Below, piece by piece: positions 9,315 to 61,190 of a DNA stretch of 64,000 bases (position 1 is the first letter of the stretch; each line of letters starts with the position of its first letter). Origin of the DNA: Octopus vulgaris (lineage: Eukaryota); contig OX597820.1 in the NCBI GenBank assembly GCA_951406725.2, positions 124,620,001-124,684,000 of the forward strand, in the 5' to 3' direction. The translations under genes and the position numbers were made by a program. The notes beneath the pieces are model-generated. The model was given only the letters and a program-made list of their open reading frames with translations. It did no database searches and was not told where the DNA came from.

Positions 9315-12277
9315 TTTGAATGCGAAGGTCTGTATGCCTGTATTTCACTCAGTATATAGGTATGTCTACCGGTGTGGACCTGGTTTTTTTTTCTTGAGTT
9401 GATTCCCATTGCAAAATGAACACATATAATTCAACCAAGTACCCGTATGGTTACTGGTACTAGCTCGTTCCAAGAAAAATTAGGAATTACATGAGCAATT
9501 CTACAAGGAATCATATTTAGATTTCTATAAAATAATTACGCAAAAGCGGAGTTAAATGTAGGCGTTTTAAGAATCCTCCTTTATATCTGAATGTCTGAAA
9601 CGAAAGGAATACAATAATAGCAAAGCTCAAGATAGCTTCCTTTCACGGCTATTATTTTGGTGATATATTAACGCCATCTACATGATTGATGAGTTTCTCA
9701 AAGGATACTGTCTGACTAGTCTTCAAATGAACGTTATTATCGTAGAACCAGAAATATATCAGAATTCTTGTTCAGATGTTTCAAGTGGTATCCCCTAGCG
9801 CAAATACTAACAGCCAACGGGCGAAATAGCTAAAAGCATGCAGGAAAACCTTTAGTTACCATAATTTAAATGTTTGAGATATCTTTATTTTCTCGCTTTG
9901 TTTTCTTTCGTTTTAAAACAAGTATTAATTTTAGAAACATTTTCCATTAACCTTTGCAGCGAATCTTCCGGTATTCACTGGCTTGCACGTCATATATACT
10001 TACTTGATGTGTCAATTGTATATCTAAATGTATTGTTGTATATAGTACTATACGTTTATATCGGTCATCCTCTTAGTTTCAAATACTATATGCCTGATTT
10101 AAATAATTTCGCCACCACCAACATGCACTGTTATTGACTTTAGCTTGGTGAAGTATACATGTCTAATTACCCCTTTGAAAGACAATGATTTTTGCAATGC
10201 ATTAAAATAAATATTGAGTCTTTTTATGTATTTCTTATGAGAATTTTTATACCAATAATATTAGCATGTCTTTGAGAGATATGCTAATATAATTGTGGTG
10301 GCCTTTTCCCCCCACAAATATAATAAAGGTGATGATACTGACAGCTGGCAAAGAGAGGTAGGCATTTTCATAAAGCATTTATGCACCATAGAGCGTAAAG
10401 TAATGTATACTTGCAAACTCTATTTCGCATCCAGATGAAGATGAATAAATAAAGCCTCTATATGATTGTTCGATAGGATTCAAAAGCATCCAAGTGTCAC
10501 TCTCTCTCTGTCTCTCTCTCTGTTTGTCTCCCTATCTCTGTCTCTCAAGTCTCTCCCAATAATCTCTCACAAAATTAGTTTGGATAATGCATTCTCAGCT
10601 ATTCAACAAACGAATATAGACGTGGTGATCTTCATCGAGTTAAATTTCGTTATTCATCTCCATCAAAACTGACCTAGAGTTGAAGAATAACACAAACTAC
10701 AATAGTAACTGATATATTCGTAATGATGTAAAGGGTCACTGTTGCTCTCCGGTGTAGCTGAAGTTAAAAGCAATATATATATAAATTTTATATTTTCTCT
10801 GCCTGATTCTGTATTGATATTTAATTCTTCTTGAATTCCCGGCAGTGAAGCCGGTAACTTGGTGATTAAGCTAATTGCAACACATTTTGATTGTGCGTTG
10901 ATTAGGCAACATAATTGTATCCATTTCTCTTTTTCTATTTATTTATTGATTTTCCTATCTACACAGCTAGCTAGATACTTACCTACATATCGGATTTTCT
11001 ATATAAATAACGTTTTGATTATTTTACACACACTCGCTCCGACAACATCCACTCACCCATATCTATGTGGGCATATAAGTATGTGGAGAATGATCATATC
11101 AGCGCGTAAACAGACACATGTGTGTGTGTAGATACACACATACACACACGCACATATATACACCATCAAAATACCTCTGAATAATGGCGAGTGTGTTTCT
11201 CAGTTAACTAATCCTGGTTGCAACAAATTCCTCTCATATGTGTGTCTAGTTGTAAACATATTTTGATTGGATTCCAGTCTCCAAGAATTCTGAAATATAC
11301 GCCTGAAGGTATACGTGTCATAAAGAGATAGAGACATGATGTCAACAACTGTGCCAGAATACACAATGGATATTCTTTAATAATTACACGAAATAAACAT
11401 TGTTGCCTCTTCCCTCTAAGCACTATCATAATATCACATTAGATTTACATATATTGTCATCAGCAGCGTTTCCTTAAATTCAGAAATGAATATCAATATT
11501 GTAATACTAATGAAGCAAAAATAAATAGACTTTCCTAATTTTTGTTTCATATAATTCCTTTGCTCCAGGTGCTTCGAAACCAAACAAGTGCTGATACATT
11601 GTTTCAGTCTTGGACGAATGAAAGGTTGTAAAGTCTTTCATATTTCCAAGGCTAAAACAATGTCACAGTAAATTTAAAATGCAATATTTGTTTCAGCTAT
11701 GAGGCTTCTATAACTTAAACGAAAAGCACCTAATAGAGGTGAACCAGAGAGGAAAATAATGTAATTTTTGCTATGTATAATGGACTACATTGTCCAGTGT
11801 TATCTCGTTTTAAACCTTATGCGTAGGTTGTGAAATTAAGATGCACTTCACGTTTGTAGCAACTTTTGCGTGTAGGATGCATGTGGTCAAAAAACATGAA
11901 ACGTCTCATTGGATTTTCCTTATTTTTTACACATTCCTGTTTCAAATCTGCCCCATTCTGAAAATTGATTTTGACCCCAAGAAACCAGAAACAACTTAAT
12001 TTTTATTATATATGAAACATATTTCATATGAATTGAATCCTCATCTCACTTTTTCTTTGACAGCCTAATAGTTATAGCCTTAAAGTTTTTGATTCTTTTC
12101 TCCAATGCAATTTAATTGGAAGTTTTTAGTACCTGGTTTATTCAGTACCTCGTTTGTGAGGATGTGATTTGGAAGATGTTTCACTACTATTTAAGGCATT
12201 ACAAACGACCGCAGAACGCTCAAGCTTCCGTTACTGCATTGTAGTGTAGGTGCGGACAAAGAAGCGCGAAAAAATTG

Positions 12278-12540
12278 AGAAGGCGTATAGAAAACGCAGA
12301 CAATAAACAGCGGAAAACGATGAACAGAAACTAAAATATAGATTATAAAAAAGTAAAAAGGTAACAGCTCTATCCTTATACCTTAAACGATAAGGTTGGA
12401 AAGGTAGCAAGTCAGTCAGGAATAGGCGGAATTTTCCCATTCTTCAAAATATATTCATATATACGCATGCGACTAAAGTATCTGAACTGGAGTTCAATAG
12501 AGATTTAGGAATCGCAGATATGAACAAGATTTGCGCTAAT
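12278..12540 (-). mobile_element. Inverted partial copy of the PLE 3' end/pLTR at 13365-13620
   Basis: The reverse complement shares ctctattgaactccag, atatattttgaagaa, ttcctgactgacttg and gttttctata with 13365-13620. Confidence 0.8.
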
Positions 12541-12884
12541 TCATCCAAACAAATCTACATTTATTCGATACGTTCACATAAGATATGGATTTGTCAATTA
12601 CTTTCCATTTAATCGAATTCCATATGTACACAGCCAACTTAATAGCTTTAATTTTCTCGCTTTGTCGGAAGGAGGCTACGTATAGCGAATTTAAAATTCA
12701 CCTTTACATAGTCCAATATAAGTCTTCTTATCAGTTGTATTATTATTTAAGTTTGCAGTAACTTATATATAATAGATTTTGTCTTATGTCGTTAGTCAAG
12801 TGGATATGACCTTGGGTCGCATTAGTTGCAACTAGATTCAGGCTCTTGATATTTACCACGTGTAATGTTACTCTTCATATTGGG

Positions 12885-13775
12885 CCAGCAACTATATGAT
12901 AATTTCACAGAACGCCTGTTAAATATTTTCCTAGACAAACACTTTCCAGCCACTCACAGATACAGGAAAATATCCAATGGGCTTTCTATGAAACTATCAT
13001 ATAACTGCTGCCCCAAGATGAAGTTTATCATTACACGTGGTCAATACCAAGAGCCTGAATCCAGATGCATCTGTCGCGACCCAGAAACCAGTCCACTTGA
13101 CCAACGATGTATGACTAAATGAAGCAGAAGTTACTGCAACCCTAAATAATAATACAACTGATAAGAAGAGCTATACTGGATTATGTGAAGGTGATTTTAA
13201 AAACCGCTATGCCTATCACATAGCCTCCTTCCAACACAGTGTCAAAGTAAAGTTACTAAGTTGGCTAGCTACGAAACACAGCATGTGATTAAATGGAACG
13301 TAATTGAGAAATCTATACCTTATGTGAATGGATTCAATAAATGTAGACTATATTTGGCTGAAAAAGCTCAGTTCCTGTTCAGATCTAAGATCTCTAACTC
13401 TCTATTGAACTCCAGGTCAGTAATTTTCAGTGGTCGTATATGTATATATTTTGAAGAACTGGAATATTTGGCCTGTTCCTGACTGACTTGATATATTTCC
13501 CGCATTATCATTTAAGGTCTAATGAGGAGAGCTCTTTTGTATTTTTAATTTTTATTTTTTACATTTTAATTTCTGTTCTCTGTTGTCTACTGTCTACGTT
13601 TTCTATATGTTGCCTTCTAAATTTTTTTGTATTTTTCAATTAGTCTATTTAGTTAGTGATGATATGTGCCTTGCGCCTGAAGAATATGTTTGAGTCCTTT
13701 CAATATATGAAACTATTAGTAGCGCTTTAATGCACGTACTAGGTGATACACTGCTGTTAATAAACAAATAACTAC
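12885..13775 (+). mobile_element. Penelope-like element 3' relic: RT thumb/linker, GIY-YIG endonuclease and pLTR (possibly Naiad-type)
   Basis: Frameshifted peptide LDKHFP..HRYRKI..MKLSYNCCP..CICRDPETSPLDQRC..KSYTGLCEGDFKNRYAYHIASF..IKWNVIEK..KCRLYLAEK..LLNSRS, followed by an HHR. Confidence 0.85.
13663..13738 (+). ncRNA. Complete type I hammerhead ribozyme
   Basis: UAUGUGC-CUU-GCGC-CUGAAGA(13677-83)-AUAUGUUUGA-GUCCUU-UCAAUAUAU-GAAA(13709-12)-CU-AUU-AGU-A|GCGC-UUUAAU-GCACGUA. All three stems pair. Predicted cleavage is after A13721 (GUA). Confidence 0.85.
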
Positions 13776-13776
13776 A

Positions 13777-13896
13777 GGGGCAAGCGTGGCTGTGTGGTAG
13801 AAGCTCGTTCAGACACACTGCGTCGGTCTACTATAACCTTGAGCTGAGAAAAAGACTTGTGAATGGATTTGGTAGACGGAAACCGAAAGAAGCCCA

Positions 13897-13936
<40 letters not shown>

Positions 13937-14154
13937 TATATATATATGCATTTACATCTAATACATCTATGTGTGTATCTTTGTGCCTGTTTGCACCCTT
14001 TGTAACTTAGCGACTCGGCGAAAGAAAACGATAGAATACGTACCAGGTTTTAAAAGTATAAACCATGAAGTCGATTTCTTCGACTTAAAATATTTAATGT
14101 GATGCTCCAGCTTGGCTGTAGCGAAATGACTGAAACAAGTAAAATGTAAAAAGC
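13777..14154 (+). mobile_element. SINE family A, diverged copy with internal deletions
   Basis: gtggctgtgtggtag...ggatttggtagacggaaac...tgctccagc...gactgaaacaagtaaaa. Confidence 0.75.
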
Positions 14155-35557: not shown

Positions 35558-35998
35558 TTCGGAACAAGTATTCATCTTAATAATTTTGAACGCCATCACC
35601 TCAACTGCTCCTTTACGTAATTATTGGTGGTTAATCATTATTTTCCACTCTCTAATTATCTGCACTGACCAAATATTAAAGATTAAAAAATGCCAGATAC
35701 CCGTACATTCCTGCTCAATGGCTTAAAATGGAGTAGGACACTTAAGATAATGTTGCAGAATATCTTATAAAAATGTAAGATTACAGGAATAACGTACTTT
35801 GAAGACTTTACAAAAATTAAGCAGTCTAGTAACAGATGCAACAATAATGAGGAAAAGGATAGCAGAGACTTCATCCTTACTTCAGAAAATACGGCATTTT
35901 GTACGCATTCCTCTCCGAGGCCAAATCTCACCCACTCTGTCGACAGGCGGCTTACTACTGACCGCTGCTCAGAAGAATTTTGGTTTTAGAGATTTATT

Positions 35999-36093
<95 letters not shown>

Positions 36094-36096
<3 letters not shown>

Positions 36097-36937
36097 TAGT
36101 TTTATTTTTATATCGTGCTTTCACTTCACTACCGAGCACAGCTCTGTGTGCCTTGGGTATGTGCTGTGATTTGTTGTGATGCTCTGATGGTTATTGTATG
36201 GAAAGTGTTCTGCGTAGGATGTGTGCAGTGCCTAGTAGTGCAATTTTCTGTATGTTATATGTGTTTGTAAGTCCTGGTGTTTTTGTTATGTATTTGTCTG
36301 AATATTTTTTTATCATGCCTAATGCACCTACTAGGATAGGAATTGTTTCTGTTTTCAGATTCCACATTCTGGTTACCTCTATTTCCAGGTCTTTGTATTT
36401 TGAGAGTTTCTCCATTTCTTTTAGAGACACGTTGTCATCTGCCGGTATTGATACATCAATTAGAAAGCATTTTTTTTCTTCATGATCTCTGACAACTATA
36501 TCTGGTCTGTTGGCCTTAATTTCTCTATCTGTGTGTATCGGCATATCCCAGAGTATGGTTGCTTTCTCGTTTTCTGTGACCTTTTCTGGTGTGTGCCTAT
36601 ACCATCTTTTTTCTGTTATTATTCCACTAATGTTGGCATAGCTTCCAATGTATGTAGGTTCCAACTCTGTCATGTCTGTGAATATATTCCTTCTTAGCCA
36701 AGACTGGGCAGCTAGAGATAATATGATTTATTGTTTCTTGTCCATCTCCACATATTCTGCAGTTACTTGTAATATTTCTTTTCATTACATGTTTTTGGTA
36801 ATTTCTGGTGGGGAGGCTTTGGTCTTGTGCTGCAATTAAAAATCCCTCTGATTCTACTTTGAGTCCTGAGCTTCTCAACCATTGCTGGGATTTTTCTTTG
36901 TCTATTTCTTTTGCGTTTAGTTTAGTCCAGTATTTAC

Positions 36938-36940
<3 letters not shown>
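36094..36940 (-). mobile_element. 5'-truncated R4/Dong-clade non-LTR retrotransposon (CCHC knuckle plus restriction-like endonuclease) inserted in (TAA)n
   Basis: ORFs 36627-36878 (AAQDQSL..CRICGDGQETINHIISSC..RHD) and 36191-36673 (ILWD..NRPDIVV..LIDVSIP..EKLSKY..VGALG) are joined by one frameshift near 36628. TTA runs flank both sides. Confidence 0.9.
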
Positions 36941-36980
<40 letters not shown>

Positions 36981-37081
36981 GTAGTAAGAACGTTAGAAAT
37001 GTTATTGCAGGAAATATATTGCAGAGATGCGTCTATCGATTGTGTGTGTACAATAAGAATGTTATATAGGTCTCTCCCTCC

Positions 37082-57206: not shown

Positions 57207-59813
57207 CTAACAGAAATACTCAGCGTTGCCCGTGTCAAAGAAAATGATGAAATTTAAAGGCGTTGCCTAGATTACACAGATCCCAACTGCTAGTAGCTGG
57301 GATACCAACTGTCTACGTAGCTCTGCCATCCATGCCATCACGGAACATAGATGTTGAGTGAAATGTGAAAAGGAAGTTTTCAGCTCATATGTTTCTAAAT
57401 TAAATACACGCTTGTATAACTTATTTCGTAACCAGAAAACAGGTACAGATTATAAACAATAAAAGGCCGTGCGTAGAGCGTCACACACACGTACACACAC
57501 ACACACACGCACACTAACAGGCAGCGAATATATCCCGTTATTGCTTCACTTTTGTACACACGAATGTCAGTCGAAAAGTGAAAGTGTAATAGTAATACTT
57601 CAACAATCAAAGGTTTTACACCTCTGAATATGATATGGACTTACGATACGTGTAATAGTTTCTTCATATACTGTGTTTTTGTCTTGCCATGTTAATCACT
57701 GTGAATGTAGAGGTTCTTTTCATATCCAACTCTAGAACATCCAATATACAGCTGACCATGTGAGAAGCAAGGTTGAAGGAGGTTAATTCCCACCACCTTT
57801 AGAAATTTATCTTGTGCTTTGTTGATAGAAATTGCAAAGCTATGTTTGACAGGAAACTGCAGTCTCTTGAACTGAAAGGGGAGATCATTTCAGATGGGAG
57901 GTATACTTGGAATGAAGACACCCTGACCCATAATGTTTCTCAGCTGCATAGAAGACTTACACATTTGTGTCTCTGTCAGAGTGGCATCCCAGTGTGCATC
58001 ATCTTCCAGAAGACCTCTGAGATGGCAAACCTTGCAATATGTTTGACATACTGTGTTGTCCACCTTACGTGAGGCTGTAAACGATGTGAGTCCCTTGACA
58101 TGGTGTAATAGAAGCCTTAGGTAGTAGTATTCTGAGTAGTTGGGATGGACAACATAGACTCTGCTAAGAGTTCTGATTTCTTGATTCCCGGACGATGTGT
58201 GGGTCTCCAAGTGCACATCATATCCATTTCTTTTAGTACCAGGTATAGAATCGTGGAACTTTATTGCATAGCAGTCTTGTTGCCAATTCATCATCTTGAC
58301 AGAGTTTGAAGAATGCTGTATGGTATCTTTGGGAGCTTCCATTTGTAGTTGGACTGTGTCTGTCATTCTGCTGTCTCAGAGAGGGAGGACAATGTCACGC
58401 ATGTCATATTTCCCAACCAGAAGCACAGCTATTACATTTGATGTTGGCGCATTAAACCCCCGCCCATGTTAAGCAGATGTCTTCTTGTGTGATCTGATAA
58501 CTAACTTGTAATCCATGGAGTCAGGTGGAATTGTTTCAAGAACAGTCGTGAAGCTACTGACCAGGTTGTTGTTGTTGTTATTCAGCATCTTTTGCAGAGA
58601 AACTACAATGTTCATCCTGATGCCGGAAATGTTCTTCTATCTCTCTTGCCTTTCTTGTTGAGAATCACCCATGAAATATATTTGAAGGAATCTTCGTGAT
58701 TCATTTGACAGAGGTAGTAGAGAGACAATATGATGATAAATTTTACCTTGGGCCTTGAAAGTTTGCATGAATCCTGGCTCAGTTATATCACTTGTGGTTC
58801 CAAATGAGGTCATCTGTAGTGCAGCATTGTATTGTCTAATTTCGTTTTGGAAGTGCTTGGAATCTTGGTCAGTTGATAACAACAATTTCTTCAACGGCTC
58901 TGGAGGTCGGGATATTGCAGATAGTTTAACCTTTCCAACACTGCAGCACAGTCCAGGTGTCTCCAGCGACTACTTTCCTTTACAATGTATGCACTCTTTG
59001 ATTATTGCACCAATGGAAACGCTAGTGTTATCTGCATAATGATCTGCTGGATCATAATTGAAACCTGCTTCATAGAAGTTGCTTCTCTGAGCTATTGCAA
59101 CTGCTCTTCGTTCTGTTCATCACTTTGAGGTACTCTGACTCTTGTACTGTACAGTTTGTTCGTTTCTTGACATGCTTCCCTTTCTGCAGCTATCTCTCTC
59201 TTTCCCTGGACAGAGATATTCTTTTGAGTGTACTTGATATTGGAGACAAATGGCCATAACTACAGATTTTTGCCCCGCCCGACTTTGAATAATCATAACT
59301 TTCAGAAAATTGATATTTTTAATTCACTACAAATACACCTCAGACCATGTAGATTGCGAGGACATAGGAGTTTTACGGGAAAACAATTGGGGTTACTGTT
59401 TCCCACTCGGGGGTGTTTCGGAACAAGTCGTCCATATCTGTGTCATTTTCACCTGGGTGGGGAACATTTCTCAAAAATAATTTCCAATTGTTTTCCCCAA
59501 AAGTTCCTGTGTCCTCGGAATCTACATAGTTCGAGGTATATTTGTAGAGACTTTCATAAAAAATATCCACTTCTTAAATTCTGAACTGGACTCTGGTGAA
59601 TTTTCAGAAATTCCCCAACCTACCATTTCCTAAAACACATTCCTGCACTAGATTTTGTATATTCAGGATCTACATAATATAACACATATTCGTAGAAAAA
59701 ATTTATGAAAATTTATCCATTTTCCTGAAAGTTATAATCATCCAAATAGGGTGAAAGGAATCTGTAGCTATGCCGACAAAATTTGACAGTTTCCTTCTAG
59801 GCACGTCTATATA
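57207..59813 (-). mobile_element. Internally deleted Helitron (RepHel pseudogene)
   Basis: N-terminal ETPGLCCSVGKV..HFQNEIRQYNAALQMTSFG..QGKIYH..FLQIYF..FNAPT; linker RVYVVHP..EYYYLRLLL..GLLEDD..W; Pif1 C-terminal QFPVKHSFAISINKAQ..FSHGQLYIGCSRV. The 3' end is cacgggcaacgctgag...TTAG|T. The 5' boundary is approximate. Confidence 0.88.
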
Positions 59814-60785: not shown

Positions 60786-60825
<40 letters not shown>

Positions 60826-60827
<2 letters not shown>

Positions 60828-61190
60828 GGTCCCGGGTTGATTCGGGGTTAACCACAGTAAATAAGGTACTCAATACATAGCAGAGTAAAATTAATTTATT
60901 ATATAGAAGGAGCTTCTACAGGACTAGAACTGTTTCATTCAAGAGAAATCTTCAGGAAGCTAGTTAACAAGAATTGTATTGGCATTTATACATTTAGGCA
61001 GGTTTAAAGGGGTGGTGGTGGGGGACTTTTTGGGGGTAGGCATAGCGCAAAAATATCATACTTGGGGGAGTGGTCAAGGAGTCAGTGGTAAACTAGATAA
61101 AAGAATAAATAAAAGAATAAAAAAATATATAAAAAAATATATAGAAGAATAGAGTTTTAGGTAAATAAGGAGATTCTCACTTATACCTAT
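60826..61190 (-). mobile_element. Probable PLE pLTR fragment or retrozyme-like unit hosting the 60911 HHR
   Basis: A block of distinct sequence between TA/CA tracts that contains an HHR and has no ORF. Confidence 0.4.
60911..60961 (-). ncRNA. Type I hammerhead ribozyme with an intact core
   Basis: Minus strand AGCUUC-CUGAAGA-UUUC-UCUU-GAAU-GAA-ACAG-UUCUAGUC-CUGU-A|GAAGCU: 6-bp stem I, 4-bp stem III, GUA triplet, short stem II. Confidence 0.78.

Follow-up and report, generated by a model that had tools for sequence, protein, structure and literature searches.

A decayed Penelope-like element in Octopus vulgaris with a type I hammerhead motif at its 3' end

Hammerhead ribozymes have been described as universal in the Penelope-like elements (PLEs) of the Hydra clade, and the hammerhead entries in File S2 of that work include Hydra-1_Obim, from Octopus bimaculoides, and Penelope-1_HM, along with many Hydra motifs that lack a G10.1-C11.1 pair (Craig et al. 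2021, PMC8557442). As presented in PMC4209133, the minimal hammerheads of PLEs (min-HHRs) combine a long helix II with a short helix I, and canonical animal type I motifs have a helix I of 6 bp and a helix II of 4 bp that serve loop contact. The sole PLE min-HHR reported there as tested singly, from Schistosoma, failed to cleave as a monomer and was weakly active when dimeric (Cervera and de la Pena 2014, PMC4209133). Dimeric PLE hammerheads are also the subject of Lunse et al. 2016, as covered by the review PMC6765202. Inverted 5'-truncated copies are a known arrangement of PLEs.

The hammerhead and the element that carries it

The window analyzed here is a 64,000-nt stretch of Octopus vulgaris DNA (assembly GCA_951406725.2, contig OX597820.1, positions 124,620,001 to 124,684,000), and positions are counted from its first letter. 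It consists of AT-rich animal DNA laden with microsatellites. The locus contains the following features.

12258..12932, - strand: 5'-truncated twin arm in inverted orientation, meeting the + arm head to head, without ribozyme
12928..13482, + strand: 3' end of a decayed Hydra-clade PLE ORF (RT thumb end, linker, GIY-YIG-type endonuclease)
13483..13662, + strand: T-rich 3' UTR of the PLE, matched by the inverted arm as far as 13627 and present in family contigs
13663..13738, + strand: type I hammerhead at the PLE 3' end, the only + strand descriptor match in the window (76-mer z -2.16)
13663..13676, + strand: 5' strand of helix I, with the distal part at 13663-69, a loop, and the proximal part at 13673-76
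13677..13683, + strand: core box CUGAAGA (C3-A9), read from the sequence and unchanged among the variants listed (40 of 130)
13684..13708, + strand: helix II, of 7 bp, bulged U13691 and 3 bp, with a 4-nt loop
13709..13721, + strand: GAAA (13709-13712), helix III within the near-palindrome ACUAUUAGU, and cleavage-site A13721
13722..13738, + strand: 3' strand of helix I
13739..13770, + strand: diverged 3' tail of the PLE, end approximate, since family contigs depart from the window behind 13738

The hammerhead motif at 13663-13738 is real and goes beyond chance. Core bases were assigned with the standard position numbering (C3, A9, 10.1, H17, etc.). The descriptor scan found all 11 invariant core bases in place, and the motif has the C3-A9 and G12-A15.1 segments, U16.1, H17, three helices and the open helix I of type I. 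A strict descriptor run on both strands of the 64-kb window gave this single match. The sequence alone had earlier been read as a hammerhead with core boxes CUGAAGA, GAAA and GUA (the last at 13719-13721), and all three were found where that sequence-only reading had placed them, both in the sequence and in the descriptor scan. The bipartite stem I that it described was likewise recovered in both its parts: a proximal helix of 4 bp (GCGC/GCGC, 13673-76/13722-25) and a distal helix of 7 bp including one U.G pair (UAUGUGC/GCACGUA, 13663-69/13732-38) enclose a 3x6 internal loop (CUU/UUUAAU). Helix III, formed here by 3 bp and a 3-nt loop, does lie inside the near-palindrome, as had been claimed, and A13721 corresponds to H17, so that the cut is predicted after 13721, the position already proposed. 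Helix II, by contrast, is not the 9-bp stem of the earlier description, as its bulge divides it and two of its pairs are G.U (13688/13704 and 13694/13699), both being G-C in the family majority. The 10.1-11.1 pair is A-U, and no additional base stands between A9 and 10.1.

The reading frame upstream of the ribozyme is badly damaged. When 52 of the retrieved proteins were compared with the window by tblastn, matches were confined to 12258-13611 and no RT was found at the locus. These matches passed through frames 1, 2 and 1 (12928-13119, 13130-13246 and 13234-13452), with frameshifts near 13120 and 13245, and an internal deletion lies near 13270. The third C of CxCX5C, the second C of CxxC and the terminal CxH have been lost; the CxCX5C and CxxC/CxH motifs survive as remnants in the window and are intact in relatives. 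The frameshifts and missing cysteines reported earlier for this ORF were thus both confirmed. A profile built from three pieces of the window retrieved 54 proteins at E<=0.001, of which about 50 were short and PLE-endonuclease-like, with a predicted protein of O. vulgaris itself (P0002) as the best relevant match (57% identity over 69 aa). The top row of this search (P0001) and a few other long proteins matching in multiple stretches were bacterial repeat proteins or resembled them and were excluded. No match came from a word-indexed comparison of 13243-13470 with longer proteins, where the profile search succeeded, and the Pfam GIY-YIG model appeared in one of eight relatives, at an E of 0.007 that is below the cut-off. 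The order of motifs (CxCX5C linker, Y..YxG, CxxC, N-R-S-E, CxH) corresponds to the Hydra-clade order when compared by eye with the published alignments (PMC8557442), and 13663-13738 is the 3'-end hammerhead expected of this clade. On these endonuclease motifs and the 3' hammerhead, with the published Hydra proteins compared by eye, the element is assigned as a 5'-truncated Hydra-clade PLE.

Relatives were also found at four metagenomic loci, one of which (L001) carries a Hydra-type hammerhead, and another (L004) lacks any DNA downstream of its match. The L001 motif, at 1194-1240, lies about 55 nt behind the endonuclease match; its helix III is palindromic, and a distal helix I is missing. Viral contigs contained no exact match to the family-type pattern. 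The match to P0002 starts at nearly the same point of the ORF as both arms of the present locus (12928-12967), and this shared start hints at a preferred truncation point or at the boundary of a long pseudo-LTR.

Like the Hydra PLEs presented in PMC8557442, this element has a type I motif 100-200 nt behind the C-terminal endonuclease ORF and near the element end. It shares the CUGAAGA box and a long helix II with Hydra-1_Obim, from which it differs in helix I, helix III and 3' UTR, and a comparison by eye places the two in separate families. A non-G-C pair at 10.1-11.1 is found here as in many Hydra members, and the string of helix III and cut site (acta-t-tagt-a) is identical to that given for Penelope-1_HM in File S2 (PMC8557442). 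Unlike in the published Hydra motifs, which have a shorter helix II, this helix reaches 10 bp with a bulge, and the distal helix I present here is unlisted for most members of File S2. The attached inverted 5'-truncated copy recalls Penelope-13_HM (PMC8557442), although the inverted arm has no ribozyme here. Neither end of the insertion shows the (TA)n target of Hydra PLEs, the ends being old and possibly secondary and (TA)n being a preference rather than a rule.

With the min-HHRs of PLE pseudo-LTRs, as portrayed in PMC4209133, the motif has in common a long helix II, a 4-bp proximal helix I, a palindromic helix III suited to dimers and its occurrence as a single dispersed copy beside a truncated PLE. 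A bulge in helix II and a helix III that is small and palindromic also characterize the Drosophila virilis variant of these motifs. It differs from them in having neither an extra unpaired base between A9 and 10.1 nor a G10.1-C11.1 pair, and its helix III is larger than that of the barest motifs. The same core and a helix I with an internal loop followed by a distal helix are described for canonical extended type I hammerheads (Schistosoma Sm-alpha; non-LTR retrozymes, PMC7229834), which have helices I and II of 6/4 bp instead of 4/10 bp and differ further from the present motif, which has no Rfam match. A non-LTR retrozyme in the sense of PMC7229834 was rejected as an identity for the locus, because self-comparison of the window revealed no tandem unit of 170-400 nt and an ORF remnant is attached. 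The papers searched gave no description of this particular octopus Hydra family, an absence that carries little weight.

Divergence of the arms, the ribozyme and its flanks

Alignment of the two arms (+ arm, 12964-13627; - arm, 12932-12269) shows 133 differences over 647 sites (20.6%, K2P 0.24), which equates to about 12% per arm. Both arms likely derive from one event. At the 31 alignable sites listed, the inverted arm has the family letter in 23 cases, the + arm letter in 4 and another letter in 4, so in only 4 of the 31 do the two arms agree with each other against the family. Most of the differences between the arms are therefore private to the + arm. Deletions shared through a non-autonomous parent were considered and rejected, since those near 13270 remove different stretches in each arm. 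The - arm stops about 30-40 nt short of the ribozyme, and a candidate decayed hammerhead past its end was discarded, as 470 of 500 shuffles scored equally well. Seen as a structure, the arms form a 680-bp inverted repeat of 79% identity (12269-13627), from which a long RNA duplex would arise on read-through. Speculatively, we take this duplex to be a possible substrate for RNA editing.

Four contig runs were made on 13150-13800 at >=80% likeness and gave 805, 40, 1070 and 822 contigs, mostly paralogues; the three DNA-type runs are those with 805, 1070 and 822. Run X1 contained 79 variant places in 651 nt (12%), and it is important to consider that the site-by-site figures that follow rest on 40 of 130 variants listed. 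Among these, at least five of the 76 letters of the motif are private changes (13669, 13670, 13696, 13699 and 13704), so that the description of the ribozyme as fully intact could not be upheld. Two of them, at 13699 and 13704, are C-to-T and turn a family G-C pair of helix II into G.U. C13669, in the seventh pair of the distal helix I, is private to this locus, as is C13670, and the tail of a family copy (P0004) is independently in accord with the family letters there. Just outside the motif, 13739 and 13741 depart from the family's continuation. Behind 13738 the family's sequence departs from that of the window, and its letters there would lengthen the distal helix I, so this copy has likely lost outer pairs of that helix.

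The density of changes among the variants listed is 5/76 in the ribozyme and 35/575 in the flanks (p=0.80). The sequence-only reading had left open whether preservation reflected chance or selection, and had proposed this very comparison of divergence; on the 40 of 130 variants listed, the result favors chance and goes against selection. If all 90 other variants lay outside the motif, the ratio would become 5/76 (6.6%) against 74/575 (12.9%), with p=0.14. In the worst case, 2 changes fall in 55 constrained positions (P=0.03 at 12%), a P that is uncorrected for the motif having been picked for looking intact. By site class, the visible changes number 0/11 in the core, 2/44 in stems and 3/21 at free positions (p=0.13), and all are compatible with the structure. 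In simulations of neutral decay at 10-12%, the core was kept with a frequency of 0.23-0.30, the core plus proximal helices with 0.05-0.09, and the whole including the distal helix with 0.02-0.04. Each DNA run had 53-90 distinct contigs over the ribozyme sites, which is not a copy number, and with that many, chance survivors are to be expected.

Folding, cleavage and competing explanations

In the isolated 76-mer, the hammerhead fold was calculated at -14.3 kcal/mol and the MFE at -17.4 kcal/mol, a gap of 3.1, and in the MFE the core bases are paired with the helix III strand. The pairing probability of helix III was 0.01. Both parts of helix I paired at 0.96-1.0 (0.66 for the outermost pair), falling to 0.13 within 13600-13800. 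The helix III hairpin was computed at +2.1 kcal/mol and the self-duplex of two copies at -4.9 kcal/mol, and these modeled energies are the signature of dimer-acting PLE motifs. Nearest-neighbor folding omits the tertiary energy of the core, and thus a low predicted share of the hammerhead fold does not prove inactivity. No partner copy lies nearby, as the twin arm is antisense and lacks the motif, and the other hammerhead of the window lies on the opposite strand at a distance of 47 kb and differs in its helix III. With a helix I of 4 bp and a helix II of 10 bp, a canonical contact between loop I and loop II would be unlikely, and the earlier notion of an extended hammerhead sped by such a contact does not agree with the 6/4-bp build of canonical motifs (PMC4209133). 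In run X2, guessed to be RNA, contig 22 spans 13333-13800 across the cut site with 6 other letters and no gap; it was left out of the evidence for expression or cleavage.

We consider, with a probability of roughly 0.8, that the locus holds the type I hammerhead of a dead 5'-truncated Hydra-clade PLE, the core of which likely survived by chance under neutral decay. While the parent element was active, its ribozyme would have cleaved multimeric element RNA behind the GUA. By analogy with published PLE motifs, it would most likely have done so as a dimer, two copies pairing through their palindromic helix III strands. The insertion would have left a head-to-head pair of truncated arms, each of which has since drifted about 12% from the family. 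The ribozyme has taken its share of changes, with those now visible all lying in loops or being tolerated as wobble pairs. For a + strand transcript of this copy, slow cutting or none is predicted, because there is no nearby partner, the monomeric helix III is unstable and a competing fold exists.

A neutral copy could nevertheless cleave well as a monomer if the two-part helix I and the long helix II provided a non-canonical tertiary contact. We regard this as unlikely, even though the family as a whole seems to possess the distal helix I, with no change at its paired positions among the variants listed and a family continuation that extends it. The strong pairing of both helix I parts in the isolated 76-mer is in line with such an activity, as are the newt motifs of PMC6155905, in which helix I extensions with an internal loop permit monomer cleavage. 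Extrapolation from the 6/4-bp build suggests, however, that helices of 4/10 bp put loop II far past the internal loop, and three of the loop letters that would make the putative contact (13669, 13670 and 13696) depart from the family majority as private changes. Further points against it are that the Hydra motifs published in PMC8557442 list no conserved distal helix, that L001 has none, and that core bases are bound to the helix III strand in the MFE. Still less probable is that the host has kept the ribozyme by purifying selection to trim or destabilize a putative + strand transcript. The absence of visible core changes and the restriction of stem changes to wobbles among the variants listed are what such exaptation would leave, the worst-case P for constrained positions points the same way, and survival of the whole fold in only 2-9% of simulated copies counts against our preferred explanation. 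On the other hand, the visible change density equals that of the flanks, the core alone would survive by chance about one time in four, no host exon was recognized among the 150 longest complex reading frames of 223, and the motif was noticed for looking intact within a many-copy family.

A mere chance match to the hammerhead consensus has a negligible probability. The Rfam search that had been suggested as a check yielded no hammerhead match for 13663-13738 at the gathering threshold or at E<=10, and a 91-nt fold gave a z of only -0.71, both of which would suit such a coincidence. Nevertheless, a relaxed descriptor produced 3 matches in 150 simulated 64-kb windows, none comparable, as none had a helix II of >=7 bp, and the motif sits where Hydra elements carry their hammerhead, with a helix III identical to a published Hydra motif. 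Its position and family conservation refute a chance origin. Very improbable, too, is the combined proposal that the hammerhead of this octopus Hydra family, with its unusual build of a 10-bp helix II and a two-part helix I whose distal part the family conserves, cleaves as a monomer via a non-canonical contact and that this copy is host-selected to cut transcribed + strand RNA; if true, the hammerhead would be of a new geometry and a cephalopod would have domesticated a ribozyme.

Other elements of the window and significance of the locus

A second hammerhead with an intact core is present elsewhere in the window.

~60910-60961, - strand: second, Hydra-style hammerhead, core from 60955, cut-site A at 60917

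It has a 6-bp helix I, a short helix II and a helix III of 4 bp with an 8-nt loop, which could form in a monomer. The motif lies within an ORF-less piece of about 350 nt between (TA)n tracts (~60825-61185), which probably represents a second PLE family's solitary 3' end. Directly after the PLE, at ~13775-14150, follows an interspersed repeat with an internal (TA)n, of which the window contains at least six other copies and which we take to be SINE-like. A LINE-like 3' end remnant occupies 35686-36992 on the - strand, with Pfam zf-RVT above the cut-off at 36630-36992. Reading-frame pieces at 57893-58969, also on the - strand, look Rep/helicase-like by eye and have no Pfam match; they are presumably the remnant of a Helitron.

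These results describe a real but unremarkable PLE hammerhead, carried by a fossil copy; to the extent of the data, its decay roughly keeps pace with that of the surrounding sequence. Since a reading frame of 550 nt offers mutation a far larger target than 11 core bases do, an "intact" ribozyme beside a ruined ORF requires no selection. The locus adds another octopus family of Hydra-type Penelope elements with the hammerhead already known for the clade, and as it stands this matters little. It may serve as a teaching case, in which the inverted twin arm dates the insertion internally.
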